From Candidatus Undinarchaeota archaeon (lineage in GTDB: Archaea > Undinarchaeota > Undinarchaeia > Undinarchaeales > UBA543), in NCBI GenBank assembly GCA_964636545.1, contig CAZWSR010000001.1, positions 1 through 64,000 on the forward strand: a stretch of 64,000 bases of DNA. The letters are read 5' to 3'. Both the position numbers and the translations under genes were made by a program. Shown here piece by piece: positions 6,417 to 54,557 of this stretch. Position 1 is the first letter of the stretch. Each line of letters starts with the position of its first letter. The notes beneath the pieces are model-generated. The model worked only from the letters and a program-made list of their open reading frames with translations, was not told the origin of the DNA and ran no database searches.

Positions 6417-6767
6417 ATGAAAATCACTGGAAATATTGTAAAACACTTTATTTTTGAAATACTGATGATTTGTGGCGGACTAGCTGCAATATCAATTCTT
6501 CACACAAATACAATGGCATTGACACTTGCTATGATTTTGATTGGAGCACTAATGCTCAAATTTTGGCATAAAAAATTAGATATATTATTTTTTGTAACAG
6601 CAGCAATAATAGGGCCTATTGGCGAAATTGTGTCTATTCAATCAGGAGTTTGGAATTATAGTATTCAGCATATTTGGGGAATTCCACTTTGGCTGCCACT
6701 TGTTTGGGGATTCTCATTTTTAATGATAAAAAGAGTTTCTAATACGCTTTCAAGAATAGAATTATAA
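6417..6767 (+). CDS. Small membrane protein (DUF2878-like)
   Basis: Four TM segments, GPIGE...GVWNY...GIPLWLPLVWG. Confidence 0.65.
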   Translation: MKITGNIVKHFIFEILMICGGLAAISILHTNTMALTLAMILIGALMLKFWHKKLDILFFVTAAIIGPIGEIVSIQSGVWNYSIQHIWGIPLWLPLVWGFSFLMIKRVSNTLSRIEL

Positions 6768-7562
6768 ACTAATACACTGAGCATGTGGAGTTACTTTAAA
6801 TATTTCTTCATAATTTTTAGAAGCTTCACAAAATCTTTTTGAATCTCCTCAATAACTGCACAATTTTTTGGATTATCAAATAGAATATCTGCGGCAACAT
6901 CTAAAAGTTCTGACCATCGCTCTTTTTTCTCTTCTGCAGAAAGCTCTTCAATTTCACCATATTTTTCACGTATTTTTTTAGAGGCAGCCACATCATCTTT
7001 TTCGTCATAGAATATATTAAATTCAACTGGAAGAACTCTATTTTTAAAATCACCAATATAAAACGCTGGTGTAATAGAATTAAGATGAATTTCAAAAATC
7101 TTTTTGTTAGTTAAGGGGAGCCCATATCTTTTTAGTTGTTCACCCCACTTAGGAACTTCTTTAATAAACTTTTTTAATTTTGAAGGATATGATGTTTTTG
7201 AAAAAGACATAAGGAAAAAAGAAGCAGATTCAAAAAAAGTTGGAGTAGATTCCTTAAAGAATTGACTTGAGTCTGCAACATGAGTTTCATGGACATCAAT
7301 AATTGCATCTATATTTTCATTTAACCCATTACAATGATTTAGAATAGTTTCTCCAATTGATTTAGAATTATGATCCTCTATCAATGAAAGATCTAAAAAA
7401 TCAAAAAAAGGATCATCTGCAAAAACTGCTTCAAGATATTTACCAGTAAGATACGCAACACATTCTTTTTTGTGAACTCCATACATTATGAGAATCATAA
7501 TAATTAGAAGAAGAAACTAGCATTTAAACTTTTCACAAACTAATACACTGCGCGTGAGGAGT
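6762..7562. mobile_element. Putative integrated single-gene cassette bounded by a duplicated DUF424 3' end
   Basis: 6762-6791 and 7533-7562 are 25/30 identical and both encode TPHAQCISL* on the minus strand. Confidence 0.75.
6791..7498 (-). CDS. Hypothetical protein (very AT-rich orphan)
   Basis: 235-aa ORF; IDAIIDVHE weakly resembles the M14/desuccinylase Zn motif. Confidence 0.6.
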   Translation of the reverse strand: MILIMYGVHKKECVAYLTGKYLEAVFADDPFFDFLDLSLIEDHNSKSIGETILNHCNGLNENIDAIIDVHETHVADSSQFFKESTPTFFESASFFLMSFSKTSYPSKLKKFIKEVPKWGEQLKRYGLPLTNKKIFEIHLNSITPAFYIGDFKNRVLPVEFNIFYDEKDDVAASKKIREKYGEIEELSAEEKKERWSELLDVAADILFDNPKNCAVIEEIQKDFVKLLKIMKKYLK

Positions 7563-7829
7563 TCCTTGAATTCGAATAATATGCTCATCAGTAATCAATC
7601 CCATTTCTTTTGCTTTTCCAATAACTCTTTCCCCAACTAAATTAGCAATATTGCAATTTTTCAATTTCTCTTCAAGTTGTTCAAGCAAAATTGTTTCACC
7701 ACCATAATAAGTTGGATCAACATGAATTTGCAACTCACCTTCCTCAAAAGTCTGACCTAGCAATTCCTTGTCGCAGGCAGCTAATACAACTGTTCCTTCC
7801 ATTGATTTTTGAATTTTTATTGAGACCAT
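7533..7829 (-). CDS. DUF424 family protein
   Basis: VLAACDKELLG..F.EG, ANLVGERVI..A, I.GTPHAQ. Confidence 0.9.
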   Translation of the reverse strand: MVSIKIQKSMEGTVVLAACDKELLGQTFEEGELQIHVDPTYYGGETILLEQLEEKLKNCNIANLVGERVIGKAKEMGLITDEHIIRIQGTPHAQCISL

Positions 7830-7836
7830 TTTTACT

Positions 7837-7894
7837 TGTTATTCGTTATTGGTTGTTCGTTATTCGTTACGAAAAACGAATGACGAAAGACGAA
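7837..7894. repeat. Heptamer palindromic array (TTATTCG)n/(AACGAAT)n
   Basis: About 4 units of TTRTTSG followed by about 4 inverted RACGAAW units. Confidence 0.8.
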
Positions 7895-8224
7895 TTACTT
7901 TTTTCCACCCCCTTCCTCTATTAAATACTTTTCAATCTCCGCAACTTTCGGCATAAGAGTTGCGAAAGTATCATCATCTGATTTTGATTTGTAAGCAGAC
8001 CAGTCAGCAAGCAAAACAAACAAGTTTGCAGTTGAGCCAACCCCATTCAGCACAACAGCATATCCTTTTTGACGAACATCTTTGTATGCAGTAATTGGAA
8101 CTTTTGTTCTAGGATTTCCTTCAATTTGTGACCATAAAGAGTCTAATGCATCTTCCTCAACTTTAACAAAATACTTTTTGTACTTGCTTTCTGCGATGAT
8201 TGTTTCAAATTTTTTTGATTTCAT
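7895..8224 (-). CDS. Hypothetical protein
   Basis: 109-aa ORF bracketed by two heptamer palindromes. Confidence 0.65.
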   Translation of the reverse strand: MKSKKFETIIAESKYKKYFVKVEEDALDSLWSQIEGNPRTKVPITAYKDVRQKGYAVVLNGVGSTANLFVLLADWSAYKSKSDDDTFATLMPKVAEIEKYLIEEGGGKK

Positions 8225-8246
8225 TTTTATTGGTTAAATTTGTGAA

Positions 8247-8323
8247 GGTATCGGGGATCGGGTGTCGGGGATCGGGTGTCGGGGATCGGGCCTGAACCCA
8301 GATACCTGATGCCTGATCCCTGA
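8247..8323. repeat. Heptamer palindromic array (TCGGGGA/TCGGGTG)n / (CCTGATN)n
   Basis: TCGGGGA TCGGGTG x2.5, then CCTGAAC CCAGATA CCTGATG CCTGATC. Confidence 0.85.
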
Positions 8324-8332
8324 GTAGATTAT

Positions 8333-8755
8333 TCAAATTTTCCTTATTGGATATTTAGCAGAACACGCCCTGCACTTTATCCATGGAACGCCCTCAACCA
8401 TTCGCAATTCAGTATCTGGTTTTTTACATTCTTTGCAAATAACAAATTCATTAACATATGTTGCAAGTTTCTGATTCAAAAACGCATTGTTCTTAGCGGT
8501 TTTTAATCGAAGACGATGAGCTTCAAGTTCTCCTCTTGACCCAGTTTCCAGAGCCAAATACTTTTGCAAATGTGCTGTGTCCCTCTCCAGAGTTCTGGCA
8601 ACCTCAGTAAAATTCTTAATTAAAGTCTGATTACCTTCAATAAATGACTCAAACTTAGGCATTTCAAAACGAACTACTTCAACCTCAGTTGTGTCAGGCA
8701 AGCCCTCGCGTGCCCTATTCAATAATTTTTTGTATTCATCTTCAGTTGTCATCAT
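8333..8755 (-). CDS. eif2b: Translation initiation factor aIF-2 beta
   Basis: YKKLLNRA, RFEMP, EGNQTLIKNF, CKEC..PDT...CRAC Zn ribbon. Confidence 0.96.
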   Translation of the reverse strand: MMTTEDEYKKLLNRAREGLPDTTEVEVVRFEMPKFESFIEGNQTLIKNFTEVARTLERDTAHLQKYLALETGSRGELEAHRLRLKTAKNNAFLNQKLATYVNEFVICKECKKPDTELRMVEGVPWIKCRACSAKYPIRKI

Positions 8756-9378
8756 ACTAATTTCAATACTCCTTTTTTTGGCTCAAACATATCTCCCTTG
8801 TGCATCAGATTCTGGACTGCTGTAATCACCAAATTCTCATCTACATCCTTTAAATCTTTTATTAAAGTCTCCATTTTCATTCCTTTGCCACTTCCGAGCT
8901 CTTCAAATTTTTTAAGAATAATTTCCTCCAGTTTTTCAGTCTGAGCTTCGCCGCTTCGCCCCTGCGCCCCTGCGCCCCCGCGCCCCTTAACCTTATTCAA
9001 CTCTATCCTCCTCAACATTTCCCAATTAATATCGACCTTGTTCAAAGCTCTTGGAAGAACATAAACTTCGCCTTGATACTCGTTAATATCGCCAAGAACA
9101 TCAATAATATCGCCAAGCTCAAGTTTCTCAATTTCAGAAACACGATCCTTGAATAATTTGACATTTATTGTTTCAGAAGAATCATCGATTGTGGCACTTG
9201 CAAACGATTTTGTATCAGAAACGAACTTGTCAACAACAGTTCCTAAAACACGGACTTTTGAAATTTTACTACCATCTTTCAAAGCAATTGAACCACCATA
9301 ACCATTTTCATTTGGCTCAAACGTGCCTTCAACAATATCACGTACCCATAATTTCAATGCAGCGCCCTCTGCAGCCAT
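8752..9378 (-). CDS. RPA32-like OB-fold ssDNA-binding protein with C-terminal winged helix
   Basis: KVRVLGTVVDKF, IDDSSETI, DVLGDINEY; C-terminal GDMFEPKKG; octamer-derived GRGGAGAQGR linker. Confidence 0.85.
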   Translation of the reverse strand: MAAEGAALKLWVRDIVEGTFEPNENGYGGSIALKDGSKISKVRVLGTVVDKFVSDTKSFASATIDDSSETINVKLFKDRVSEIEKLELGDIIDVLGDINEYQGEVYVLPRALNKVDINWEMLRRIELNKVKGRGGAGAQGRSGEAQTEKLEEIILKKFEELGSGKGMKMETLIKDLKDVDENLVITAVQNLMHKGDMFEPKKGVLKLV

Positions 9379-9381
9379 TGC

Positions 9382-10281
9382 CTACAACACCCCCGGAAGC
9401 CACACAATAAGTTTTGAAAGGAAATACGCAGCAATAGTGCATATTGCAATTGGAGGTAATGCTGGAATAGCGCCTTTCTTGCATTTCAAAAGAATGAAAT
9501 AAACAGCAACGATTCCAAAGAACGATCCAAATAAAACAGAAATTCCTGAAAATAGTGATTGTCTAACTGCAGAAACTGCAAAAATTATTGGGAAGGCAAT
9601 GTCACCAGTTCCAAGCATCATGTATTTTCGAACTTTTCCTTTTCCAGGACCAATAAATGCATCATTCACATTTGCCTTGAAGTCCTTAAGATTACCAGGA
9701 ACCACTAAGGAAAGGGGAACGTGCCTTGAAAAAAGATTTTTGAAAAGCTTAACCATGTGCTTTGTTTTGAAAACTGCAATATAATCATAAACTGATAGCA
9801 AAACTAGTATTACAATAACTGCTTCAACTGGCAAAAGCAAACCAATACTTGCACCAATTCCAGCAACTGCCAAGGTCATTGAAAAATTCTGAAGAACAAT
9901 TGTGGGCCACAAAAATCTCAAGCCAACAAGAATAAGTGCAAGCGCGATTCCAAGCCACGCTGGCAAGAAAGTGCTGAACACCATTTCACTGCCTAGGAAA
10001 ATAAGTGCTGCCAACATAATCCTGAAAAGCCAACTACCTTTAACGAATTTTATAAGAACAATCAGAACAGTAGTTGCAATAAGAAACGCTATCAAGAAAC
10101 CAAAGATTGATTCCGAAACTGGAGCTGTAACAGCGAACTCAGGAAGCTTTAGATTAAGAAAACCAACAAGAATGCCAATCACTTGCGCAACCATAAACAT
10201 TCCAGAACCTAATGCGAACATACCTAAATTGAATTCTGTTCGCGGATTAAGACTTTTGGAGGAAACCTTGCTTTGGCTCAT
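9382..10281 (-). CDS. Presenilin-family GxGD intramembrane aspartyl protease
   Basis: SVYDYIAV, LGTGDIAFP, PALP motifs. Confidence 0.92.
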   Translation of the reverse strand: MSQSKVSSKSLNPRTEFNLGMFALGSGMFMVAQVIGILVGFLNLKLPEFAVTAPVSESIFGFLIAFLIATTVLIVLIKFVKGSWLFRIMLAALIFLGSEMVFSTFLPAWLGIALALILVGLRFLWPTIVLQNFSMTLAVAGIGASIGLLLPVEAVIVILVLLSVYDYIAVFKTKHMVKLFKNLFSRHVPLSLVVPGNLKDFKANVNDAFIGPGKGKVRKYMMLGTGDIAFPIIFAVSAVRQSLFSGISVLFGSFFGIVAVYFILLKCKKGAIPALPPIAICTIAAYFLSKLIVWLPGVL

Positions 10282-12277: not shown

Positions 12278-12346
12278 AGTGTCACTCCATTGGTATTAAA
12301 CCACGTGATAGTTGGGGCTTATAATATTTCCCCAACTAGCGTAAGT

Positions 12347-13015: not shown

Positions 13016-13041
13016 TCTATCCCACCTCGATAATTATAAAA

Positions 13042-13055
13042 CCCTTTATAAAGGG
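13042..13055. promoter_or_regulatory. Palindromic TATA box upstream of tbp
   Basis: Perfect palindrome CCCTTTATAAAGGG about 30 nt from the tbp start; AAAACCCTTTATAAA recurs at 13071-13085. Confidence 0.65.
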
Positions 13056-13071
13056 ACTATTTACTTCAATA

Positions 13072-13325
13072 AAACCCTTTATAAACCCTCCGCAGACCCT
13101 GTTTTTCCGATGGAACAACTAATCAAGCGAGCGCACACTTGTCATTCTGGACAAAAATGTGCGCGAGCCAGCTCAAATAAACCGAACCAATTTCAAAACA
13201 GGGCTTCAACACGAAGTGTTGAACGCCCTCATACTATCCTCTCGAACCGAAGGTTTGAGACTTGTGCAGTAACCAACTTCAATGCCTGCACATTGTCCGC
13301 AGCAAGGCGGAGTTATAAAGGCTTT
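13072..13325. mobile_element. Composite hairpin-rich non-coding (MITE/REP-like) element
   Basis: Shares modules with 47351-47394 and 52846-52911; several C-GAA-G hairpins; imperfect inverted ends. Confidence 0.6.
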
Positions 13326-14603: not shown

Positions 14604-14693
14604 TCAAATCACTTAGGTTTAGGAACTTAAAGCAATATAAGTAGTTTATGATATCGGAAAGTGTTAAATATAAAGGAATGTACTATATTTATT

Positions 14694-15131
14694 ATGTTCT
14701 TTAAAAAAGCAAGAATAAGAAGCATGCAGAGAAAAAGAATGAAAGGAGCACTTCAAGACAGAGTTGATGATTTAAGTGGCGCAATAGACAAAGCAAGCAG
14801 TCATGCCAGAAGCATAGGAGATGCTTATGATATTTTTGGAAGTTTAACTATTGAGGGTAAGAACCCAGAATTTGATGAAGATGGCACAGAAGTGACACTT
14901 GAGAAGAATGACAGCTCTGTAGAGATGGAGATTGAAAGAGGAGACATAAAAGATCTGAAAATGGATGGAGATGATGTTAGATCAGTTGCAAAAGAAATAT
15001 TCACATTCCTGAATAATAGAATAAAACAAGAAGGTGAGGACCCTTATGCAGACATGAAAAAAACAGGAATATCGCCTCAGATGCCAATACCACGTGAATT
15101 AAGAGTTATTTTTGACAAAGGTAATAAATAA
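14694..15131 (+). CDS. Hypothetical protein
   Basis: Purine-rich ORF with upstream TATA; no recognisable motif. Confidence 0.6.
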   Translation: MFFKKARIRSMQRKRMKGALQDRVDDLSGAIDKASSHARSIGDAYDIFGSLTIEGKNPEFDEDGTEVTLEKNDSSVEMEIERGDIKDLKMDGDDVRSVAKEIFTFLNNRIKQEGEDPYADMKKTGISPQMPIPRELRVIFDKGNK

Positions 15132-15141
15132 ATAAATTAGT

Positions 15142-15672
15142 TTATTTCACATCCTCATTATCATAATGTTGCAGTGAAAGCAAATCATATTTTCCTAATT
15201 TCTCTCTACCTTTTAGGAAATCAAGTTCTACAATAAAACACATTCCAGCAACAATGCCGCCAACTTTTTCAACTAAATTCGCTGTTGCTTGAATTGTTCC
15301 ACCAGTTGCAAGAAGATCATCAACAAGTAAAACTTTCTGACCAGGTTTAATTGTATCCTTGTGCATTTCAATTTTGTCAGTACCGTATTCTAATTCATAT
15401 TCTTCAAAAACAATTTTGCTTGGCAGTTTGCCTGGTTTTCGAACAAGTGAGAGTGGTTTGTTAAGTGCAATAGCAAGAGCTCCGCCGAAAATGAAACCGC
15501 GTGACTCAACACCAACAATAACATCAATTTCCTTGTCCTTGTAATGATTAGCAAATGTGTCAATACAGTGCTTGAAAGCTTCTGGACTTTCAAGAATAGT
15601 TGTTATGTCATAGAACAAAATCCCTTCTTTTGGGAAATTTGGTATTTTTCTAATATGTGAGTCAATATCCAT
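15142..15672 (-). CDS. apt: Adenine phosphoribosyltransferase
   Basis: PNFPKEGILFYDIT, ESRGF, RKPGKLP, LEYG, VDDLLATGGT. Confidence 0.97.
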   Translation of the reverse strand: MDIDSHIRKIPNFPKEGILFYDITTILESPEAFKHCIDTFANHYKDKEIDVIVGVESRGFIFGGALAIALNKPLSLVRKPGKLPSKIVFEEYELEYGTDKIEMHKDTIKPGQKVLLVDDLLATGGTIQATANLVEKVGGIVAGMCFIVELDFLKGREKLGKYDLLSLQHYDNEDVK

Positions 15673-16972: not shown

Positions 16973-17002
16973 TATTAATTAACTGGAGTGAGTTTATTGA
17001 GT

Positions 17003-18184
17003 ATGAAATTCTACATTGAAACTTACGGTTGTTCTAGGAATCAAGCAGATTCAGAAGCAATAGCTGGAGCACTTGCTGAAGAACATGAACAGGTTTTGAA
17101 TGCTAATGACGCCGATATTGTTGTTGTAAACACCTGTATTGTGAAAACTCCAACTGAAAATAAGATTTTGAAAGCTTTGAAGAAATATTCTAATAAAAAA
17201 CTGATTGTTGCTGGTTGTATGTCAGTGGCGCAGGTGGAGTTAATTAAAGAAACAGTGCCAAATGCAGAAATTTGGGGAGTTAAGCATGAGGATGTTCTGG
17301 AAGGACCGCGGATTAGAACAAATAAAATTGTTAGTATAATTCCGATTTCATCTGGATGTCTTGGAGATTGTACTTATTGTATTGTTAAAAAAGCTCGTGG
17401 AAAATTAAAAAGTTATTCTCAAGAGAAAATAATTTCTGCAATTGAGAAATCAGTTGCTGATGGTTGTAAGGAAATTTGGATAACTGCTCAGGACACTGGA
17501 GCTTATGGAATTGACACTGGAACAAGCTTGCCAGCGCTTTTAGAGGAAATTTGCAAAGTTTCTGGAGATTTCAGGGTTCGGGTTGGTATGATGAACCCAA
17601 ATCATGCAATGAAAATGCTTCCAGCACTTGTGAAAGCACTTCAGCACGAGAAAATGTTCAAGTTTTTGCATTTGCCAGTTCAGTCAGGAAATGACAAAGT
17701 TTTGAAAGAAATGAATCGATTTTACACTGTTGCTGATTATAAGAAAATAATTGAGTTTGTTAAGAAAGAAATTCCACAAATTACAATTTCCACTGATGTT
17801 ATTGTTGGTTTTCCTGGAGAAACTAATGAGCAATTTGAAGAAAGTTTGAAATTAGTTGAGCAGACAGAGCCAGATATTGTGAATATTTCAAGATATGGAG
17901 CACGGCCGGGCACTCCTGCAGCTGAACTTGAACAACACCAAGAAATTACTAAAAAAGAAAGGAGCAGAGCAATGACAATACTTGTTAGGCAAATTGGGCA
18001 AAAGCAGAATAATGAGTGGTTAGATTGGGAAGGAGAAGTTCTGATTGATGAAATTGGCAAAGAAAATGATTTTATTGGAAGAAATTTTGCGTATAAGCCA
18101 ATTGTTGTGAAAGGAAAACGAGAACTTGGTGAGTTTGTTAAAATTAAGGTTGGGAAAGCAACTGAGAATTATTTAGTTTCTTAA
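17003..18184 (+). CDS. MiaB-like tRNA methylthiotransferase (archaeal MtaB/e-MtaB type)
   Basis: ETYGCSRN..DSE, NTC.VK, CLGDCTYC radical SAM motif, TDVIVGFPGET, C-terminal TRAM. Confidence 0.92.
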   Translation: MKFYIETYGCSRNQADSEAIAGALAEEHEQVLNANDADIVVVNTCIVKTPTENKILKALKKYSNKKLIVAGCMSVAQVELIKETVPNAEIWGVKHEDVLEGPRIRTNKIVSIIPISSGCLGDCTYCIVKKARGKLKSYSQEKIISAIEKSVADGCKEIWITAQDTGAYGIDTGTSLPALLEEICKVSGDFRVRVGMMNPNHAMKMLPALVKALQHEKMFKFLHLPVQSGNDKVLKEMNRFYTVADYKKIIEFVKKEIPQITISTDVIVGFPGETNEQFEESLKLVEQTEPDIVNISRYGARPGTPAAELEQHQEITKKERSRAMTILVRQIGQKQNNEWLDWEGEVLIDEIGKENDFIGRNFAYKPIVVKGKRELGEFVKIKVGKATENYLVS

Positions 18185-19020
18185 GAGAATAGTAATTCTT
18201 AAAAACAATGAAAACCAATAGGACTTAATGAGAGACCCAACAAAAAATTTAAAACATGCTCTTGAAAAAGTAATAGAGCTATATCCAGAATATGCTAATG
18301 AAAAAACTATTGATGTTTTTTCAGAAAAAATAGAAGGAAATATACCATACAAAGGCGTGACACTTGCGATGTATCTCAGAATCCTCTCAAACGCCTATAG
18401 AAACAATCAAGAGAAATTGACAGAAGGATACATAAAAGATGCAGTAGGCAATAAAAATCGAAAAAAACAATGTATACTGATACTAAAACAGGAACAAGAA
18501 TTAACAAAAAAAGTAGCAGAGATATCACACAATATAATTAATAAAAGTAGAATATCATCATTTGAAAAAGTAGTGGAATTGTATCCAAAATACTTTGACG
18601 AAAAAAATATGCGAGATTTTTCAAAAAAAATAAGAGGAGAAATAGAATACTCAGCTGCAACACTGGCTCAGCAACTTGGTATTCTCGCAGATGCCTACAA
18701 AAATAACACAGGAGATCTCACAGAAAAGAGTATACAACGAATAAGGTGTACGCATAGAAATAGAAAAAACCAACTCATAAGCCTATTAAAACACGAACCA
18801 GAATTAATGAAAACAGTAGCAAAAATTGGTTGTTTCTTCAAAAACAAAAAAAGATTCAGAGGAAAAGAGTATCTTAAAGAAAAATACTATGGAAGCGGAA
18901 TATTGTTAGAAAAACTTGCACACTTTCTAGAAATAATGTTTGGATGGAAACCTACAATCCTTAATCAAGCAGCACATAATCCAAGGGCAAGAAGAGCCTG
19001 AGAATTATTTAGTTTCTTAA
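18162..19020. mobile_element. Putative integrated single-gene cassette with perfect 23-bp direct repeats
   Basis: CTGAGAATTATTTAGTTTCTTAA at 18162-18184 (methylthiotransferase 3' end) and 18998-19020. Confidence 0.8.
18228..19001 (+). CDS. Hypothetical protein made of two tandem ~100-aa repeats
   Basis: EKVIELYPEY..SEKIEG.I.Y...TLA..L.IL..AY.NN...LTE...NRK.Q.I..LK.E.EL.K.VA.I occurs twice. Confidence 0.75.
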   Translation: MRDPTKNLKHALEKVIELYPEYANEKTIDVFSEKIEGNIPYKGVTLAMYLRILSNAYRNNQEKLTEGYIKDAVGNKNRKKQCILILKQEQELTKKVAEISHNIINKSRISSFEKVVELYPKYFDEKNMRDFSKKIRGEIEYSAATLAQQLGILADAYKNNTGDLTEKSIQRIRCTHRNRKNQLISLLKHEPELMKTVAKIGCFFKNKKRFRGKEYLKEKYYGSGILLEKLAHFLEIMFGWKPTILNQAAHNPRARRA

Positions 19021-24573: not shown

Positions 24574-25793
24574 GTTTACCATGGCCTGAAAAATATAGGC
24601 CGAAAACAACTAGTGAAATTGTAGGTCAAACGAGTTCAGTTACTGAAGTTAAAAATTGGATTGCGAATTTTAAAACTGCAAAGGAGAAAGCACTTTTATT
24701 AACTGGTCCAGTTGGTTCAGGAAAAACTTCACTTGTTAAAGCAATTGCAAATGAACTTGAATTTGACTTAATTGAAATGAATGCATCGGATGTTCGAAAA
24801 AAAGATCAGATTGAATCATTATTAGGAAGTGCAACAACTCAGCAAAGTTTGCTGGCAGTGAAAGGTAAACTTGTTCTAGTTGATGAGGTTGACGGAATTT
24901 CAGGAAATTCTGACCGCGGTGGAATGGCTGCTCTTGGCAGAATTATTTCAAAAACCAGTTTTCCGATTATATTGACTGCAACTGACAAGTGGAATAGGAA
25001 ATTGTCAAATCTTAGGAAAAAGTGTATTGCAGTTAATTTAAAGAAAGTTGATATTCGTTCAATGGCAAAACGGCTTGAGGAAATTGTTAAAGAAGAGCAT
25101 TTGAAAGTTGGTGAAGGTGTGCTAACTGAAATTTCTCGCAGATCTGAAGGTGATTTGCGGGCAGCGATTAATGATCTGGAATCGCTTGCATGCGGTAATA
25201 AAATAACAATGAGTGATTTGGAGAAACTTGGCGCTCGCGAGAATATTAAAAGTATTTTTGATACACTTTTTGCAATTTACAAAACAAAAGATCCTGAATT
25301 TATTATGGATTCGTTTTGGAAATGCGACAAAAGCCCTGGGGAAATTATGTTGTGGTTAATTGAGACAATTCCAAAGGAGTATGAGAAACCAGATGAAATT
25401 GCTGAAGCATTTGATAATATTTCGCGAGCTGATATTTTTAATGGGCGGATCCCACATAGTCAGGCATGGAGCTTGATGTCATATTCAGCTGAACTAACTG
25501 CTCTTGGAACTGCAATGGCAAAGCAGGAGAAGTATAAGAAATTTACAAAGTATATGCCACCAACTTATTTGATGCGGATGGGAAGGACGCGGATGAGTCG
25601 GGCAATGCGGAAGAAAGTTTCTGGATCAATTGGTGAGAAATTACATTGTTCTAGGAAAGTGGTTGGGGAACATTATGGGTATTATAGAATGATGGCGAAA
25701 AAATATAATAAGGCAGTAGGTAGTGGGCAGGAGGTAGTGGGAAACAATTGGCTTGGATTGGAAGAAGATGAATTAGTGTTTTTGAAGAAGTAA
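24570..25793 (+). CDS. rfcL: Replication factor C large subunit
   Basis: WPEKYRP, GPVGSGKTS, EMNASD, DEVDG, GDLRAAINDL; heptamer-derived KAVGSGQEVVG near the C-terminus. Confidence 0.95.
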   Translation: MSLPWPEKYRPKTTSEIVGQTSSVTEVKNWIANFKTAKEKALLLTGPVGSGKTSLVKAIANELEFDLIEMNASDVRKKDQIESLLGSATTQQSLLAVKGKLVLVDEVDGISGNSDRGGMAALGRIISKTSFPIILTATDKWNRKLSNLRKKCIAVNLKKVDIRSMAKRLEEIVKEEHLKVGEGVLTEISRRSEGDLRAAINDLESLACGNKITMSDLEKLGARENIKSIFDTLFAIYKTKDPEFIMDSFWKCDKSPGEIMLWLIETIPKEYEKPDEIAEAFDNISRADIFNGRIPHSQAWSLMSYSAELTALGTAMAKQEKYKKFTKYMPPTYLMRMGRTRMSRAMRKKVSGSIGEKLHCSRKVVGEHYGYYRMMAKKYNKAVGSGQEVVGNNWLGLEEDELVFLKK

Positions 25794-25829
25794 ATTGTTA
25801 TAAAGTATTGAAAATAATGAGATATTGGA

Positions 25830-26438
25830 ATGACTAAAGAAATTACAAAAGATGATGTAATGCTGGCAACAGAAACAGAGAGAGAATGGGAATTGTTTAT
25901 AGGTAAAAAGGTAAGGAGTGTTAGGTTAAAGGTTCTTGTTAAAAGTGAAAAAATAAGTAATCTTTTGAAAGGAAAAGAGGATAAATTCAATAAATTAAAA
26001 GAGCTAGATCGGAAACGTGAGGAATTCCCACACAAAATAACTGGCAGGATTACAATTCAGAGATTGAGGTATAAGGATATAAGAGATGGAATGACTGGTA
26101 TATTTTTAAGATTATTAAAAGAAGATGCAGAAAAAAAAGAAAATAGTGATCTTGCAGAAATTTTGAAAAGGGATGGAGAAGATGAAGAAGAGTTACAAAT
26201 ACTTTCAATTAATTTCTTGAATCCACGACATAACTTGATAAAAGAGGGGATAGATAAAATAACACAAAAAAAAGGGATAGGAACAGCATCAGTTGAAAAC
26301 CTAATAGAACTTGTGGAAGATATGAAGAATCCGAAGATGAAGTACATCATTGTAGCAACAACAAAAGAGTATGCTGGAAACACATTGAAGAAATTTGAGT
26401 TTGACTGTATTGGAGATTCAGAAGATGGTAGTTATTAG
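25830..26438 (+). CDS. Hypothetical protein, possible divergent GNAT fold at the C-terminus
   Basis: QKKGIGT motif-A-like and A...LKKFEF end; purine-rich orphan. Confidence 0.5.
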   Translation: MTKEITKDDVMLATETEREWELFIGKKVRSVRLKVLVKSEKISNLLKGKEDKFNKLKELDRKREEFPHKITGRITIQRLRYKDIRDGMTGIFLRLLKEDAEKKENSDLAEILKRDGEDEEELQILSINFLNPRHNLIKEGIDKITQKKGIGTASVENLIELVEDMKNPKMKYIIVATTKEYAGNTLKKFEFDCIGDSEDGSY

Positions 26439-26459
26439 TATAGGAAGTTGTGAGTTAAA

Positions 26460-26600
26460 ATGAAAAATCCAAAACGTTTTTGTTCAAACTGTAAAAAAGA
26501 GCTTTCTAAAGATAGTAAATTAGAGGTTTGCTCTAGTTGTTTTGAAGAAGTTGCAAAAGGATTTACTGCTAGTACTTGGAAAATAAATAAGAAGAAATGA
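26460..26600 (+). CDS. Small zinc-finger protein (46 aa, not in the ORF track)
   Basis: MKNPKRFCSNCKKELSKDSKLEVCSSCFEE..., CxxC-x12-CxxC. Confidence 0.65.
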   Translation: MKNPKRFCSNCKKELSKDSKLEVCSSCFEEVAKGFTASTWKINKKK

Positions 26601-26637
26601 GGAAATTGTTATAAAGAAGTAGATACAAGTGAATGTT

Positions 26638-47321: not shown

Positions 47322-47476
47322 TTTTAAAGGTTATGATAGGATGAATTCCGGCGAGCGCGCACTTATCCAACTAAGGATTAATGTGCGCAAGCCACACTGC
47401 TTCAGCTACAAAGCTGATAACCTGCTGAATGCAGTCAAGCGCGCCGCCTGAGCTTGCAGGCGTTTTAAAGGTTATG
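47322..47476. mobile_element. Hairpin-rich non-coding element flanked by 14-bp direct repeats
   Basis: TTTTAAAGGTTATG at 47322 and 47463; internal GCGAGCGCGCACTT..AATGTGCGCAAGCCA shared with 13127-13170. Confidence 0.65.
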
Positions 47477-47807
47477 GAGTTGCAAAATAGCGCTGACTTA
47501 TTCGCTCTTGCGGTTTTCGATACTCTCGTTCTCGACATTTTCCACCTTCAATGCGAATTCCACGGCCTGAAACAAGTGCATCTGTTATTTTTGAATGCGC
47601 TGTGCTGAGTATTCTATGGAAAGTTGATTGAGAAATACTCATTTTCTTGCATGCTTCACGTTGATCAAGTTTTTCAAAATGCTTGAGACGCATTGATTCA
47701 AACTCGTCAATAGTAATAGAAATTGGTTCATTCCAGTATGAGCCATGGGGACGAAAGTCTGTGTATTTGGGAGTTCGGGAAATCACACGCTTGCGTCTTG
47801 GCTTCAT
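47472..47807 (-). CDS. DUF134 (UPF0251) DNA-binding protein
   Basis: MKPRRKR, F.P.G, DEFESMRL...LDQ.EA..M.ISQSTF.RIL..A..KI.DALV.G..I.IEGG. Confidence 0.92.
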   Translation of the reverse strand: MKPRRKRVISRTPKYTDFRPHGSYWNEPISITIDEFESMRLKHFEKLDQREACKKMSISQSTFHRILSTAHSKITDALVSGRGIRIEGGKCREREYRKPQERISQRYFATP

Positions 47808-50954: not shown

Positions 50955-52697
50955 ATGAAGCGGTCACTGATCGCCCTTACAGTCCTATTCGTTATGTTAG
51001 CTTTAGCTGGTTCAGTTCATGCAATTCCTGGAATAAACAGCTCAACAACAATTGCAATTAACGATCCAGACACAAACGAACTTTTTACTTTGCCACGTAC
51101 TAATCAAAAACTTGAATCATGGGTAAATTTTTCATACACTGTACGAGGAGATAATAATGTGAGCTGGTGCAAACTGGTATCAAATAACACACAGATGGCA
51201 GTCAATATTAGTATTGAGCGAATAGGAAACGAGTATTTTAGAGACATTGCACTCACAAATGGAACTTGGTGGTATTATATTCAGTGCATGGATAATTATT
51301 CAAAACTCTATAATTCAACAAACGAAACATTGCGAATTATTCTTGATGATACTCCACCAACAGTTAGTCTGAATATACAAGACACAACTTACAACACAAC
51401 TGATGGCAGAACACTATTCCGATTCAATACAACAGAGATGGAAACTGGAATAGATAATTGTACATTGTTTGTTGAAGATGAAGAAAGAGGAAAGTTAGAA
51501 TCAGTTGGAAATAACAGTCGAGCTACTTTCCCTGAGCTTGTGTTTGGAGAAGGAGACTATATGTGGTATGTGGTTTGTCAGGATAATGCAGGAAATATTG
51601 GGAAATCAACGCATGGGTTGCTAATTGGAGAACTTATTGCGTCACAGACTATATTTCTTAACAGCCCCCCAGACCAAGCAGTTGATTTAGACACTTATGT
51701 AACTTTCAAATACACACCAGCGAGCCGTCTGCAAATAAACTGGTGCGGGCTATTGCTTAATGAAACTCATAATGTAACAGACAATGAAATAGAAAACGCA
51801 ACAGAGAATGTTTTTGAGAAAGTAAAACTGAACCACGGTCCATACAACTGGTCAATAAGCTGTGTGGACTCAGAAGGAAATAATGTAACTTCAGGAAAAA
51901 GAGAATTGTTTGTCAACAGAACAATACTTCTGAGCGAATATCTAAGAATAAATATTTCAGCTCCAGCAGACCTTCAAATAGTTGATTCGGGTGGAGTAAC
52001 AATTCATTATACCCCAACAGCAGTTCTTGGCCTGAACCGTTGCGAATTGTTAACAAACAGGAGTGTTCGAGGAGTTACTGAAGGAATTAGTAGTGGCGAA
52101 GAAGCACTGTTTTCAGGAGTTTCATTTTCCGAAGGTATATGGGAATGGAGACTTCGCTGTTTTGATAATTCAGGTAATGAAATAAATTCAGAACTGAGAA
52201 CATTGATAGTTAATGCACAAGATCCAGAACCAATAATAAATGAACCAGATAAGAAGATATCTGGAGAAATTGAAGATAAAGATATTACAGAAATTCTTTC
52301 AGATATTAAGGGAAGAGCTAAGGGCTTTTTGGGAATGAGTAATGCAGCTTGGCTTGCACTTGTGATAATAGTTGTTTTCTTGGGAGTTGGGGCAAGCGTG
52401 ATTGTAACTGATAAAAAGTTTGAATTAGAATTAATAAAAGATGTTCAGTTGGTTTTGTATAAATTAAAGATTAGAAAAGATCCACCTAATGCTAAAAAGA
52501 AAAACCCATTAACTGTGGAGCACAAGAAAGCTTTGAAAGATTATATCACATATCATATGAAGAATGGAGTTGCAAGAGTAAAGATTGAGGACCATTTGCG
52601 ATCTCATGAATGGAGAAATAATCATATTAAAGAAGTGTTTGATGAGCTTGAAGAAGAATGGGATGAGTGGCGGGATAGATTTGTTGAGAAAGAATAG
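50955..52697 (+). CDS. Surface protein with four Ig-like repeats and TM anchor
   Basis: Repeated C.L....G.Y.W.I.C.D..GN units; signal peptide; C-terminal TM. Confidence 0.8.
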   Translation: MKRSLIALTVLFVMLALAGSVHAIPGINSSTTIAINDPDTNELFTLPRTNQKLESWVNFSYTVRGDNNVSWCKLVSNNTQMAVNISIERIGNEYFRDIALTNGTWWYYIQCMDNYSKLYNSTNETLRIILDDTPPTVSLNIQDTTYNTTDGRTLFRFNTTEMETGIDNCTLFVEDEERGKLESVGNNSRATFPELVFGEGDYMWYVVCQDNAGNIGKSTHGLLIGELIASQTIFLNSPPDQAVDLDTYVTFKYTPASRLQINWCGLLLNETHNVTDNEIENATENVFEKVKLNHGPYNWSISCVDSEGNNVTSGKRELFVNRTILLSEYLRINISAPADLQIVDSGGVTIHYTPTAVLGLNRCELLTNRSVRGVTEGISSGEEALFSGVSFSEGIWEWRLRCFDNSGNEINSELRTLIVNAQDPEPIINEPDKKISGEIEDKDITEILSDIKGRAKGFLGMSNAAWLALVIIVVFLGVGASVIVTDKKFELELIKDVQLVLYKLKIRKDPPNAKKKNPLTVEHKKALKDYITYHMKNGVARVKIEDHLRSHEWRNNHIKEVFDELEEEWDEWRDRFVEKE

Positions 52698-52736
52698 ATT
52701 TTTATAATCGTTATTACAAGAAAAACACCCTACCTT

Positions 52737-52825
52737 GCGGGGGTAGCAAAGCCTGGTCAAATGTGCTAGGTTGAGGGCCTAGTTCCTTAGTGGATTCGAG
52801 GGTTCAAATCCCTTCCTCCGCACCA
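52737..52825 (+). tRNA. tRNA-Leu(GAG)
   Basis: GCGGGGG acceptor, CTAGG-TTGAGGG-CCTAG, long V arm, GGTTCAAATCC, A73 with encoded CCA. Confidence 0.95.
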
Positions 52826-52937
52826 ATTTCTTAAAACAGTAATTTGAACCAATTTCAAAACAGGGCTTCGCGAAGCGAACGCCCTTATGCCATCGTCCGC
52901 GGCAAGGCGGACTGTTCGAACCTCGTCCCCCGCATCA
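52826..52937. mobile_element. Mini hairpin element plus displaced tRNA-Leu 3' end (att-like)
   Basis: 52914-52937 matches the tRNA 3' end at 18/24; 24-bp identity to 13184-13207. Confidence 0.6.
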
Positions 52938-53003
52938 CACTTTTAATAATCTTTATTCGTGCTAGATAAAGTTAAATAATACAGATTAACAGTAAATTAT
53001 ACT

Positions 53004-54077
53004 ATGATTGATGAAGTCAGTTTTGTTGCAAAGGCCGGTGATGGAGGAGATGGACAGGTCAGCTTCAAACGAGATAAGAATGGCCCTAAAAGCGGCCCTG
53101 ATGGAGGGAATGGAGGCAACGGCGGTTCTATCTATATTGAAGCTGATTCTAACATAAATACCCTAAGTGACTTTGCTGGGAAAACGAGAATAACTGCAGA
53201 AAATGGAGAGAAAGGTAAACGAGGGCGTAACAATCCTAAAAAAACACAAGACATAACTCGTAAAGTTCCTGTTGGAACAATGATTTACAATGCAACCACT
53301 AATCGACTTATATTAGACCTTAACAAGTCCGGCATGAGCTATTGTATCGCGCATGGTGGTAAAGGCGGGTTGGGTAATTGGCGTTTCAAATCATCGAAGG
53401 ATGTAGCCCCAACTAAATTTACTTATGGAGAAAAAGTCAAACCAATCAATGTTCATCTAAAACTCAAAGTTTTGGCTCAAATTGGATTAGCTGGTTTACC
53501 AAATACTGGAAAAAGCACAATACTTTCTGTTCTAACCAAAGCTAAACCAAAAATTGCAAATTATCCTTTTACTACTTTATCTCCAAATTTAGGGGTTATG
53601 GAAACAATTGACAAAACAGGTGACTTGGTTATAGCAGATATCCCTGGTTTGATTGAGGGTGCGTCACTTGGTAAGGGTTTAGGAATTCGTTTTCTCAAAC
53701 ACCTTCAAAGATGTCAATTAATTGTATATGTTATATCTCCTGAAATTCATGAACTTGAATTAACTGGAGAACAAATAGCTCAGAGTTTATGGGAACAAAA
53801 AGAAAAAGTTGAGAATGAAATGACACAGTTCAGTGCTGAGCTTGTAAAAGTTTCAAGTATGATTGTTATTAACAAAAAAGATCTTTTAACACAAGAACAA
53901 CAAGATGCAATTTTATCTTTTTTCAAAACAAAGAACAAAAAAATTATGCTAATCTCTGCTGCTACAACTGACAATATACAGATATTTTCAAATGAGCTTC
54001 AGGAGAAATACAAAAAAGCTGTACTTACTAAAGTAGATGAAGAAAAAGATAACTCAGATTATACACCCAACCCGTAA
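53004..54077 (+). CDS. obgE: Bacterial-type Obg GTPase (ObgE/CgtA)
   Basis: Gly-rich Obg fold AGDGGDG.VSF.R....GPDGGNGGNGG; GLPNTGKST, YPFTTL.PNLG, DIPGLIEGA, NKKD, ISA. Confidence 0.93.
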   Translation: MIDEVSFVAKAGDGGDGQVSFKRDKNGPKSGPDGGNGGNGGSIYIEADSNINTLSDFAGKTRITAENGEKGKRGRNNPKKTQDITRKVPVGTMIYNATTNRLILDLNKSGMSYCIAHGGKGGLGNWRFKSSKDVAPTKFTYGEKVKPINVHLKLKVLAQIGLAGLPNTGKSTILSVLTKAKPKIANYPFTTLSPNLGVMETIDKTGDLVIADIPGLIEGASLGKGLGIRFLKHLQRCQLIVYVISPEIHELELTGEQIAQSLWEQKEKVENEMTQFSAELVKVSSMIVINKKDLLTQEQQDAILSFFKTKNKKIMLISAATTDNIQIFSNELQEKYKKAVLTKVDEEKDNSDYTPNP

Positions 54078-54110
54078 TTTTCAGCTATGAGTACGCGCCA
54101 CATCACAATT

Positions 54111-54557
54111 TTAAAACTCTTTCTTCATTGGCTGATAAACCATTCCCTGCTTCCTTGAAATTCCACGTGACTTTTTAAATCCATGTTTTGTGTAGAAACC
54201 AACAGCAGAGAGTGCGGACCAGACAAATATCTTTTTCACACCACAGCCCTTATAATAAGATTCAACTTTTTTGAGAAGTGCAGAGCCAATACCCTGTCCA
54301 TGGTATTTTTTATTAACAAACATTGCTCCAACTCGATTGTGTTTTTTAAAAGCACTTCCAACACCAACAATAGTATTGTTAATTTTTGCAACATAAAGTG
54401 GATCTTTATTCTTCAGAACTTCACTAACCGTTATATCTTTCTCAATTAATTCGCGACCCTCTTTTGTAAAGTCCTGAAAAACATGATTCCGGAAACCAGT
54501 AAGTATTACATTTACAACTTTGTCTTCATCACCTTTCTGGAATCTTTCTATTTTCAT
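54111..54557 (-). CDS. GNAT acetyltransferase
   Basis: MFV...YHGQGIGSALL...AVGFYTKHGF. Confidence 0.9.
   Translation of the reverse strand: MKIERFQKGDEDKVVNVILTGFRNHVFQDFTKEGRELIEKDITVSEVLKNKDPLYVAKINNTIVGVGSAFKKHNRVGAMFVNKKYHGQGIGSALLKKVESYYKGCGVKKIFVWSALSAVGFYTKHGFKKSRGISRKQGMVYQPMKKEF

Follow-up and report, generated by a model that had tools for sequence, protein, structure and literature searches.

How do short inserts, some holding a single orphan gene and others no gene at all, come to lie between direct copies of a host gene end, promoter or tRNA end? The window, by which we mean the whole 64,000-nt stretch of DNA analysed here, comes from a small Undinarchaeota-like (DPANN) marine archaeal genome. 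A sequence-only reading of it described four cargo segments and two tiny non-coding inserts between direct repeats, and proposed a generic, integrase-less route of gene gain. Occupied sites were compared with the corresponding sites in two genomes of the same genus, G001 and G002, and at some sites also in G004; short elements were surveyed across 17 genomes of the phylum. Empty sites were found in the two same-genus genomes for four of the six proposed units. The window contains at least four recent, lineage-specific insertions, each lying between two direct copies of its host target: two carry one orphan gene each, and two are non-coding, GC-rich hairpin elements, one of them from a multi-copy family associated with tRNA 3′ ends.

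Orphan genes between duplicated gene ends

All six proposed coordinate pairs hold similar sequence at the claimed spacing.

6762/7533: 31 of 38 nt identical, 14 exact
18162/18998: 23 of 23 nt identical
25792/26603: 14 of 14 nt identical
47322/47463: 14 of 14 nt identical
52933/54101: 22 of 26 nt identical, longest exact run only 7
52802/52914: 3′ end of tRNA-Leu compared with a tRNA-like 3′ end, no exact run longer than 5

As had been claimed, the repeats have no shared consensus; the further claim, that a functional host signal is duplicated every time, is true of five of the six pairs (gene 3′ ends, promoters and a tRNA end). Ten direct repeats of at least 14 nt lie 100–2000 bp apart in the window, two of them within one repetitive gene, against 1.3–1.8 expected from Markov shuffles of the window; one repeat at this spacing reaches at least 20 nt, against none expected. 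The two 14-mers (25792/26603 and 47322/47463) each have exactly two exact copies in the window, all other matches being two-mismatch hits at chance level, and are not common promoter words. The genome also holds short-period palindromic intergenic repeats.

Site a lies at the end of a DUF424 gene.

7533..7829, minus strand: host gene DUF424 (Pfam DUF424, E 2e-24), with orthologs in G001, G002 and G004
7533–7570: proximal copy of duplication a, the last 12 codons and stop of the DUF424 gene
6791..7498, minus strand: cargo a, an orphan ORF of 235 aa in the same orientation as DUF424; insert 29% GC
6762..6799, no strand assigned: distal copy of duplication a, matching 7533–7570 at 31/38 nt

The stop codon of cargo a lies at the start of the distal copy, which can still be read as the C-terminal end of DUF424 and overlaps with the stop of convergent gene 6417–6767. 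Cargo a is absent from this site in G001, G002 and G004; the empty site in G002 has a single repeat copy, and its two convergent flanking genes abut, their stop codons overlapping at TTATAA. Cargo a has no Pfam, PHROG or NCBIfam match, and a search of 5.8 billion clusters returned only itself. The gene-side and distal copies differ at five third-codon positions, and 17 nt of the distal one agree with G001, which weakly indicates a copy brought by a donor.

Site b has the same arrangement at the end of a gene for a radical-SAM enzyme.

16988..18184, plus strand: host gene, MiaB-like radical-SAM enzyme (Pfam Radical_SAM, UPF0004, TRAM), orthologs of 74–80% identity in G001 and G002
18162–18184: proximal copy of duplication b, the last 7 codons and stop of the MiaB-like gene
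18185..18202, plus strand: degenerate in-frame third copy of the gene end, immediately after the stop codon (read from sequence)
18228..19001, plus strand: cargo b, a 257-aa orphan ORF containing a ~100-aa internal repeat; insert 31% GC
18998..19020, no strand assigned: distal copy of duplication b, 23/23 identical

Here the stop codon of the cargo falls within the distal copy. Neither G001 nor G002 has cargo b: in both, 10 bp separate the MiaB stop from a convergent gene, and the empty site of G001 consists of the left flank, one repeat copy and the right flank. No Pfam, PHROG or NCBIfam match was found; among the 5.8 billion clusters cargo b occurs only as itself, the one variant seen elsewhere has a 21-aa deletion, and no relative with cargo b beside MiaB is known. 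The filled junctions are present at 100% identity in independent assemblies (contigs of runs from four studies), and contig X4 (17904–19096) covers the whole of insert b. The suggestion that such units move as small circles found no backing, as contigs of four runs hold no skipping or circular joints, a source that cannot reveal rare forms. The speculation that the pilus locus supplies the incoming DNA likewise gained no support from this analysis. No terminal inverted repeats are visible at the ORF inserts.

Two further ORF units, the first absent from the earlier reading, have shorter repeats.

14642..15145, plus strand: additional lineage-specific insert; 8-nt repeats at 14642 and 15138 enclose orphan ORF 14661–15131 (156 aa)
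25792..26616, plus strand: candidate unit c; 14-nt exact TATA-like repeats (25792–25805 and 26603–26616) around orphan ORF 25830–26438 (202 aa)

The 8-nt repeat takes in the stop of a phosphoribosyltransferase gene and, at such a length, is not significant alone; G001 and G004 lack the insert, with gaps of 49 and 7 bp in its place. At unit c, G004 lacks the entire block 25794–28823, and G002 carries three unrelated genes there while keeping the first repeat copy and ~15 nt beyond it. Of the four proposed cargo segments, a and b are established by their empty sites and the 811-bp unit is a candidate only; the fourth, Obg (53004–54077), proved to be ancestral.

Hairpin elements at a promoter and behind tRNA genes

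Both tiny inserts belong to dispersed families of hairpin elements, a point the earlier reading overlooked. The first separates two copies of a promoter.

47322..47476, minus strand: unit f, a GC-rich (54%) 127-nt hairpin insert (47336–47462) flanked by exact 14-nt copies of the promoter of gene 46173–47303

G001 has one promoter copy at this site, with the two genes 34 bp apart. The fold of unit f has z = -2.9; it belongs to no Rfam family, and nothing credible was found at E up to 10 around 47250–47550. A weak second copy lies at C1 98466–98577, and unit f has modules in common with the 75-nt element family found at the tRNA-Leu locus.

52737..52825, plus strand: tRNA-Leu(GAG) (ARAGORN, Rfam)
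52826–52913: 88-bp insert directly behind tRNA-Leu
52841..52913, plus strand: copy of the ~75-nt two-hairpin element, inside the 88-bp insert (blastn, nhmmer; covariance model R1, 95 bits; covariation)
52914..52938, plus strand: displaced ancestral tRNA-Leu 3′ end (T-loop, T-stem 3′ strand, acceptor 3′ strand)
53004..54077, plus strand: Obg GTPase, ortholog 93% in G001 and 71% in G004
54111..54557, minus strand: GNAT acetyltransferase (Pfam), the gene specific to this genome at the Obg locus

Over 22 nt the displaced end is the same as the 3′ terminus of tRNA-Leu(GAG) in G001, and it matches G002 too. G001 and G002 carry one and the same version of this tRNA, from which the intact gene here departs in its D-arm, T-arm and acceptor 3′ strand. 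Since compensatory changes separate the gene-side copy from the ancestral one, and the D-arm differs as well, it fits a donor-borne copy rather than an on-the-spot duplication. Only tRNA reached threshold in an Rfam scan of the window, with nothing credible (E up to 10) around 52650–53050. Obg was rejected as inserted cargo, being ancestral here and next to tRNA-Leu in G001 too (order w50955 – tRNA-Leu – Obg – w55029, with the Obg stop 30 bp from the next gene). The GNAT acetyltransferase has no match in G001 or G002.

Across the phylum, the two-hairpin element gives 48 R1 matches in 4 of 17 genomes (6, 12, 13 and 17), and nhmmer recovers 30 copies in three genomes. Seven of its 15 base pairs covary and 98.8% of cells are paired, a result equalled by none of 500 shuffles. 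Another copy lies in the window.

13179..13251, plus strand: second window copy of the hairpin element, in a ~210-bp insert between the TBP and AdoHcy hydrolase genes, with an 11/13-nt flanking repeat

Alignment shows that G002 lacks this insert. Six of the 30 copies begin 6–34 nt past a same-strand tRNA, compared with 0.085 expected. Seven tRNA genes that each precede an R1 element or ORF insert in one genome were compared between genomes: the R1 element is missing there from every other genome, and at two of the seven a second genome has a related but longer element.

About a dozen of the 30 copies have flanking duplications of 8–28 nt adjoining their ends. These duplications are copied from each local target, unrelated non-tRNA targets included, and vary in sequence and length. 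At tRNA genes the duplications take in trailer bases that differ between species, and were therefore made from the local target. In the distal tRNA-Gln(CTG) copy of G002 the bases after the discriminator are the genomic CTA, as in the gene, without CCA, which identifies the source as DNA or an unprocessed precursor and not mature tRNA. Five tRNA-linked copies have a distal copy with an identical altered T-loop (GTTCGGARC) irrespective of the tRNA, and this shared change is not explained by plain fill-in. A short complementarity of the ends (CGAAC...GTTCG, 5 nt) occurs in tRNA-linked copies only.

Import from related lineages would account for the gene-side copies that look foreign, as at tRNA-Leu and, weakly, also at site a. 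A donor fragment, made up of a host-gene end and the adjoining foreign gene, would be anchored by homology in the shared gene, and its far end would join illegitimately some tens of bases upstream of the recipient gene end; the donor end would then be used and the recipient end left as the distal copy. Such homology-facilitated illegitimate recombination is known from naturally transformable bacteria; a literature search found no description of it in archaea. The likeness lies in foreign DNA beside a conserved anchor gene, with donor and recipient copies of the anchor end both possibly present, and it would also follow from import that the repeat is in every case the end of the adjoining conserved gene. 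Exchange within the genus is visible: gene 6417–6767 is 96% identical to G002, against 67–81% for its neighbours, and AdoHcy hydrolase is 96% identical to G002 versus 48% to G001. Furthermore, the intergenic slots of the inserts hold other genes in G002 and G004. However, the copies at site b are identical (23/23) and its cargo adjacency is matched in no known relative. Import also shifts the origin of the adjacency of cargo and gene into an unseen donor. It leaves the multi-copy hairpin element, with its duplications at unrelated sites, unexplained, and we regard import as an unlikely account.

Enrichment of flanking repeats

The sequence-only reading would have fallen if repeats were no commoner around orphans than around core genes, and they are commoner. 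Across three genomes, a flanking repeat score of at least 18 was reached by 4/136 lineage-specific inserts and 3/1256 conserved-gene controls (one-sided Fisher p 0.0024), and a score of at least 14 by 7/136 and 14/1256, respectively (p 0.0026). New cases emerged in congeners: G001_C1 13111/13738, G002_C6 6134/7303 and G001_C2 6704/7587, where 26/27 nt of a tRNA-Val end flank an 883-bp ORF insert. Nevertheless, only a few per cent of the genes gained have long repeats beside them. Among 51 clean lineage-specific insert sites in this genome, two have a long repeat, and eight reach p ≤0.1 against ~5 expected, figures that do not sustain a generic route of gene gain. Either most genes are gained by another route or the repeats have decayed.

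The repeats might instead be coincidence or shared regulatory words, similar promoters or terminators at neighbouring genes with no history of insertion. Unit c and the Obg pair do involve TATA-like, AT-rich words, and this genome has further long intergenic repeats, low-complexity palindromic spacers, on either side of genes that both congeners share. In contrast, scores of 21.5 and 23 are reached by 3/1256 controls, the 14-mers occur nowhere else in the window, and the empty sites of relatives at a, b, f and tRNA-Leu consist of flank, one copy and flank. Those empty sites refute coincidence at these four loci; it remains for the Obg pair and partly for c, and as a general explanation is barely credible.

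Recombinases, known systems and the route of insertion

The claim that the inserts are integrase-less is borne out in G000, G001, G002 and G004, each 78–83% complete. PF00589, the tyrosine-recombinase family, has no match in them, against 14/14 control genomes. Likewise, PF01609 (DDE transposase), PF01797 (Y1/HUH transposase), PF00078 (reverse transcriptase) and PF01867 (Cas1) have no matches in the four genomes and matched in control genomes; PF07282 (TnpB-associated; G000 only) gave one match, below the cut-off. Bins often miss mobile genes. A retroelement, whose target-primed reverse transcription gives variable duplications, and casposon-type integration would call for the reverse transcriptase and the Cas1 that these searches did not find. 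The inserts encode no transposase, each holding at most a single orphan ORF.

Gene 3′ ends and tRNA 3′ ends are classic integrase targets, and CIMEs are integrase-less att-flanked elements. A tyrosine or other integrase acting in trans from a virus, plasmid or unbinned element could thus have used the repeats as att cores, the small units being such att-flanked elements or shrunken remnants of larger integrated ones. Consistent with this, the host gene stays whole and a partial target-gene 3′ end lies beyond the insert at DUF424, MiaB-like, tRNA-Leu and tRNA-Val (G001), the last flanking an ORF; at tRNA-Leu the gene-side copy looks foreign and the displaced copy ancestral, as in attL/attR. Partial tRNA copies left by integration are well known, and the remnants named in PMC9897764 flank elements of 9–23 kb. 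The units here are of 0.1–1.2 kb, with no integrase encoded or found in the four genomes. Their repeats (8 to 38 nt) have no common sequence, independent insertions of the hairpin element share no att core, one element duplicates unrelated non-tRNA targets, and the species-specific trailer bases indicate local origin; an integrase in trans therefore appears doubtful.

The hairpin elements resemble MITEs in being short (75–130 nt), structured, non-coding, intergenic, multi-copy and lineage-restricted, with presence/absence differences between close genomes and flanking target duplications. MITEs have short, fixed duplications and terminal inverted repeats matching a parent IS; the duplications here are long and variable (8–28 nt), no clear terminal inverted repeats are seen and no IS was found. 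Unlike MITEs, the element also strongly prefers the 3′ side of tRNA genes, always in tRNA orientation. Long, variable-length target duplications are described for IS1634/IS1549 (PMC2266710), where no mechanistic model is proposed for them, and a DDE transposase of this kind encoded elsewhere might move non-autonomous elements. IS1634/IS1549 are 1.5–2 kb, unlike the inserts here, and encode the transposase, most family members duplicating 5–6 bp. PF01609 is without a match in the four genomes, the ORF inserts lack visible terminal inverted repeats, and the end complementarity of the hairpins is limited to tRNA-linked copies, which makes this explanation quite improbable. The ORF units also recall integron cassettes, as single promoter-less or self-promoted ORFs of ~0.6–1.2 kb gained singly. 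They differ in being scattered and without sequence in common, with no attC-like shared site, array, nearby integrase or common insertion point, and in having repeats of local host sequence.

The reading we prefer, at a probability of roughly 45%, is that one insertion process leaves a copied stretch of target on each side of the incoming DNA, for ORF and hairpin inserts alike. The two kinds of insert have no sequence in common, so it is the shape of the duplication, long and variable (8 to 38 nt across the two), that points to a single process. It could consist of a widely staggered break followed by fill-in, carried out by an enzyme encoded outside the inserts, or of a replication template switch to foreign DNA that returns upstream of the point of departure. 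The survivors would be inserts whose duplication spans a stop codon, promoter or tRNA end, since such a duplication leaves the host gene whole.

A stronger proposal, which we consider improbable, is that the genus inserts foreign DNA with no recombinase devoted to it. Template switching or a widely staggered break, as part of host repair or replication, would then install both a self-spreading, tRNA-seeking hairpin and single orphan genes. If so, this would amount to transposase-free gene gain in a reduced symbiont genome, in which the long duplication prevents damage to the adjacent gene end, promoter or tRNA. Units flanked by such repeats could later exit as small circles through recombination between the repeats.

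Repeat-flanked single-ORF inserts and their empty sites

The window comprises the first 64 kb of the largest contig in a genome of 840 kb (39 contigs, ~37% G+C, 83% complete by marker genes) and carries the archaeal information genes TBP, MCM, RFC, thermosome, Topo VI and RpoK. Metagenome runs that contain its sequence are labelled as marine, seawater or hydrothermal-vent metagenomes. The window proteins were compared with the syntenic stretches of two genomes of the same genus (G001 and G002) and one of the same order (G004), and then with the whole of G001 and G002. Completeness is 78–83% for all four genomes, including the window's own (G000).

All six repeat pairs proposed by the sequence-only reading are present at the positions and spacings claimed for them.

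Direct-repeat pairs of the window (start positions; match; setting)
6762/7533; 31/38 nt; site a, end of the DUF424 gene, around a 235-aa ORF
18162/18998; 23/23 nt; site b, end of the MiaB-like gene, around a 257-aa ORF
25792/26603; 14/14 nt; unit c, around a 202-aa ORF
47322/47463; 14/14 nt; site f, around a hairpin insert
52802/52914; two tRNA-type 3′ ends; tRNA-Leu pair
52933/54101; 22/26 nt, longest exact run 7; Obg pair

The expected excess over a shuffled background was also found: the window contains 10 direct repeats of ≥14 nt at 100–2000 bp, compared with 1.3–1.8 in Markov shuffles (order 1, 3 and 5, 40 each), and its lone 23-mer repeat was never reached in these shuffles. Across the seven largest contigs, repeats of ≥14 nt are ~4 times commoner at 100–2000 bp than in distance bins of ≥3.9 kb, and repeats within repetitive genes or between tandem paralogs account for most of this short-distance excess.

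At site b, the stop codon of the MiaB-like gene lies 10 bp from that of the convergent gene in both G001 and G002. At base level, the G001 site joins the left and right flanks of the window through a single 23-mer copy (with 3 differences). This single-copy site demonstrates that 836 bp were inserted with an exact 23-bp duplication, which spans the last seven codons and the stop of the MiaB-like gene. In G004, this position is occupied by a different 650-bp sequence. In a scan of GTDB representatives, the 78 other loci listed for the MiaB-like protein, besides those of G002 and G004, were all ≤49% identical.

At site a, DUF424 adjoins RpoK in G001 and G004, and in G002 it is convergent with an ortholog (96% identical) of the gene at 6417–6767, the two stop codons overlapping in TTATAA. 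The repeat comprises the last 12 codons and stop of DUF424, and only the 235-aa ORF lies between its copies. The copy beyond the insert (the distal copy) encodes an unchanged C-terminal peptide, with 5/7 differences at third codon positions, and matches the G001 DUF424 gene over 17 nt. At both a and b, the cargo ORF is co-directional with the host gene and has its stop codon at the start of the distal copy. A further single-ORF insert (14642–15145) is missing from G001 and G004; its flanking repeat is only 8 nt long and includes a stop codon. The ORF inserts have 29–31% G+C, compared with 37% for the window.

Contigs of four runs from four studies contained no joints skipping insert a, b or 14642–15145 and no back-joints over positions 6000–25999, but contigs drop rare variants and are therefore uninformative on excision or circles; the joint 13016>13354 occurred in one run and was disregarded, with only 20 letters on one side. 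In metagenome run X5, one contig departs from the window after position 7523, just ahead of the DUF424 stop, and continues with 255 unlike letters; this break may represent another context for cargo a. A 17-nt junction pattern, too short for such a search, matched at least 118 unrelated metagenomic stretches, and no homolog of a window protein was encoded in the 118.

The membrane-protein gene at 6417–6767 is 96% identical to G002, with neighbours at 67–81%. The AdoHcy hydrolase gene (13350–14603) is also 96% identical to G002 and only 48% to G001, which has ~5 kb extra beside it. On sequence comparison, these identity patterns suggest that single genes were recently exchanged or replaced within the genus. 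At 6369–6740, contigs from three of the four runs contain a second haplotype with many differences, and few differences occur in the adjoining stretches.

A hairpin element family and its position behind tRNA genes

Two tiny non-coding inserts bounded by repeats had been described; both are borne out, and both are related to repeat-element families. The 88 bp behind tRNA-Leu have matches elsewhere in G000, at least 12 in G001 and at least 10 in G002, and nhmmer recovered 30 element copies in these three genomes. Seventeen copies align over a core of ~72 positions with two hairpins, in which 7/15 pairs show changes on both sides and 98.8% of 255 cells are paired; these values were reached by 0/500 shuffles, and slid controls were 33–46% paired. 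G-U pairs number 0 among the 255 cells, which hints at a hairpin formed at the DNA level. R1, a covariance model of the ~75-nt two-hairpin element, has matches in 4/17 genomes of the phylum (G000 6, G001 12, G002 13 and G004 17).

Six of the 30 copies start 6–34 nt behind a same-strand tRNA gene called by ARAGORN, where 0.085 would be expected (binomial p 3e-10), and three further copies behind tRNA or tRNA-like ends were missed by this count. Seven tRNA genes were compared that are followed in one genome by an R1 element or, in one case (tRNA-Val), by an ORF insert; an R1 element was found behind 0/7 of them in the other genomes. At Gln-CTG and Arg-CCT, the position in a second genome is occupied by a longer, related element, and at Ser-CGA a second genome shows a stretch containing the leading box of the element.

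In tRNA-linked copies, the sequence after the element repeats the T-stem 3′ strand, the acceptor strand and a few trailer bases. Trailer bases in these duplications match within a locus and differ between species; each duplication was thus made from the local target, and the events are independent and recent. The distal T-loop is GTTCGGARC in five tRNA-linked copies, regardless of the tRNA's own T-loop. In tRNA-linked copies, the insert ends share microhomology with host sequence lying upstream of the duplication (GTTCGGAA vs GTTCGAAT); such microhomology is weak at site a and absent at b and f. Element copies away from tRNA genes have flanking duplications too (e.g. 27/28, 17/18, 14/15 and 9/9 nt). 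The window itself holds a second copy:

13179–13251; element copy within a ~210-bp insert absent from G002, between 11/13-nt repeats

The tRNA-Leu(GAG) gene is the same in G001 and G002, and 22 nt of its 3′ end recur unchanged in the window's distal tRNA end. The working tRNA-Leu of the window differs from theirs in the T-arm (with compensatory changes), the acceptor 3′ strand and the D-arm. Foreign-looking copies on the gene side, here and weakly at site a, argue against a purely on-the-spot duplication. They fit two rival explanations, both of which are kept: that an integrase acted in trans, or that DNA was imported from relatives through anchoring by homology.

A second tRNA gene at 52826–52940 was rejected, as this stretch comprises a hairpin element and the ancestral tRNA end. 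An interpretation of the distal tRNA copies as exon 2 of a T-loop intron was likewise rejected, on the reasoning that splicing would give a T-loop without A58 and that a canonical tRNA is already formed with the gene-side copy. Elsewhere, the stretch 16511–16987 carries a DUF2283 gene and a tRNA-Phe gene (91 nt, probably with an intron), whose anticodon region recurs 94 bp away as a 36-nt repeat of 81% identity (16790/16884). This 478-bp stretch, which may hold a second, uncalled tRNA-like gene, is missing entirely from G001, where the flanking genes are 12 bp apart.

At site f, the DUF134 gene (47472–47807) is in place in G001 and is therefore ancestral. Between DUF134 and the next gene, G001 has 34 bp and one promoter-like copy, and the window is 141 bp longer. 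Insert f (127 nt, 54% G+C) lies between two exact 14-mers, has a fold z of −2.9 with 0/200 shuffles equally stable, and has no Rfam match. It has modules in common with composite members of the hairpin-element family.

The proposal that Obg is cargo between 52933 and 54101 fails. G001 has the order w50955 (a gene named by its window coordinate), tRNA-Leu, Obg (93% identical) and w55029, and Obg is also found in G004 (71%); the gene is thus not an insert. The gene specific to G000 at this locus is a GNAT gene (54111–54557). The frame at 54578–55012 was rejected as a gene because it is the wrong strand of a real RPA/SSB-like gene (54646–54966). The Obg-type GTPase (53004–54077) is full-length, with the Pfam GTP1_OBG N-domain, which is typical of bacteria, and is present in G000, G001 and G004. 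Searches of G002 and 26 other relatives gave no full-length Obg, and the matches obtained there cover the GTPase domain alone; acquisition by an old transfer is possible.

Frequency of repeat-flanked inserts, their cargo and other variable stretches

The sequence-only reading had suggested a generic route for gaining single genes. For 51 insert sites of G000, a congener provides a clean empty site (≤150 bp); 8/51 reach p ≤0.1, compared with ~5 expected. In a test across three genomes, controls were conserved genes with conserved neighbours, and 24 control sites doubling as insert sites were dropped. A flanking-repeat score ≥14 was reached at 7/136 insert sites and 14/1256 controls (one-sided Fisher p 0.0026), and a score ≥18 at 4/136 and 3/1256 (p 0.0024). 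Repeat-flanked single-gene inserts are real and enriched over conserved-gene controls, but they are a small minority of gains, since a long flanking repeat is present at only 2/51 clean sites (a and b).

Further repeat-flanked cases
G001_C1 13111/13738; 31/34 nt at a gene end and the next promoter; around a 197-aa orphan
G001_C2 6704/7587; 26/27 nt at a tRNA-Val 3′ end; around a 156-aa orphan
G002_C6 6134/7303; 23/27 nt; around two orphans
G002_C5 58360/59165; fourth case, resembling a tandem gene duplication
G000 contig C39 (1032 bp), 31 and 978; 25-nt exact direct repeat; around one 254-aa ORF

Contig C39 ends 30 nt outside each repeat copy, and its flanks are absent elsewhere in the assembly; it may represent a polymorphic site in its filled state. 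Contigs C36 and C39 were rejected as circles, as their repeats are just 24–25 nt and are not end overlaps.

The unit c block (25794–28823, three ORFs) is missing in G004 and replaced by three unrelated genes in G002. Because G002 keeps the first 14-mer and ~15 nt behind it, a simple order of flank, copy, insert, copy and flank does not fit unit c. Its 14-mer is not a recurrent promoter word. In this variable block behind RFC lies a DUF2779/Cas4-like PD-(D/E)XK nuclease gene (27392–28819), with orthologs elsewhere in G001 (74%) and G002 (61%).

Cargo ORFs a, b and c are mutually unrelated and single-copy, have no Pfam, PHROG or NCBIfam match, and found only themselves among 5.8 billion clusters. 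Exhaustive phmmer searches with cargo b gave a 21-aa deletion variant and one weak repeat match, and Atlas features gave cargo a a sub-threshold DUF2119 or M14-like lead (score 0.89–0.90). Phage_integrase, DDE_Tnp_1, Y1_Tnp, RVT_1 and Cas1 had no match in G000, G001, G002 or G004 (78–83% complete), and control genomes were matched. One TnpB-type zinc ribbon match, below the cut-off, was obtained in G000, the only genome searched for it.

Short-period, partly palindromic, G/C-patterned spacers of GGCAGT, CTGATA and GCGCCCC types occur at gene boundaries:

23466–23497 and 25712–25743; window
29506–29544 and 30009–30047; window
8247–8290; window
8956–8986 and 21206–21236; window
75467/77092; G000 contig C2
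43857/44590; G000 contig C3

Long intergenic repeats of this type bracket genes kept in both congeners and so do not mark inserts. Between conserved neighbours lie a large orphan of 858 aa (37833–40409) and a surface-protein block of beta-helix (NosD-like) type (42288–46119). G001, G002 and G004 lack the 858-aa gene at the corresponding place, and no flanking repeat was seen. A pyrimidine 5′-nucleotidase (UMPH-1 family) is divided between adjacent ORFs at 57615–58079 (profile positions 91–245) and 58092–58454 (2–84), neither of which has a match in G001 or G002; the gene is either broken or truly split.

Known systems, possible mechanisms and significance

The footprint resembles that of integrative elements targeting tRNAs and gene ends, as far as the available part of their description goes (PMC9897764), but the units here are 10–100 times smaller and have neither an integrase nor a common core. 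The hairpin elements resemble MITEs; however, the duplications here are long and variable, and there is a preference for the tRNA side. Long, variable duplications are shared with IS1549 and IS1634, for which the accessible text proposes no mechanistic model (PMC2266710), but no such transposase was found in the genomes here (78–83% complete). A 2026 survey of archaeal IS elements lists no eukaryotic-like transposons for Undinarchaeota, and the portion of it that was available does not describe the elements found here (PMC13343696). A limited literature search gave no account of such units in Undinarchaeota. The units are classed as att-like or target-duplication-flanked mini-inserts, together with a new tRNA-seeking hairpin element family.

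The comparisons establish the insertions and where exactly they begin and end, the duplications, and the element family with its choice of target. It is proposed that one process duplicates 8–38 nt of target around incoming DNA. In one form, a widely staggered break would be filled in around the insert, with the enzyme encoded elsewhere. In another, replication would switch template to foreign DNA and return upstream of the departure point; this would permit any duplication length and need no recombinase, and the T-loop-like end of tRNA-linked elements could guide the return. Survival would explain the harmless positions, as the host gene stays whole only if the duplication spans its stop codon, promoter or tRNA end. 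A repeat-flanked unit could also leave by recombination between its own repeats, of which no sign was observed.

DPANN archaea have very small genomes and fast gene turnover, and little is known about their route of gene uptake. For several recent gains described here, the boundaries are resolved to single-base precision. Their footprint is unusual, with long target duplications of variable length at gene ends, tRNA ends and promoters and no integrase or transposase found. Many independent events of one kind come from the tRNA-seeking hairpin element, so the mechanism is testable in population metagenomes or enrichment culture. A recombinase-free process, if confirmed, would represent a new entry route for orphan genes into reduced genomes; should the cause be an unbinned enzyme, the element family would provide a handle for finding it.
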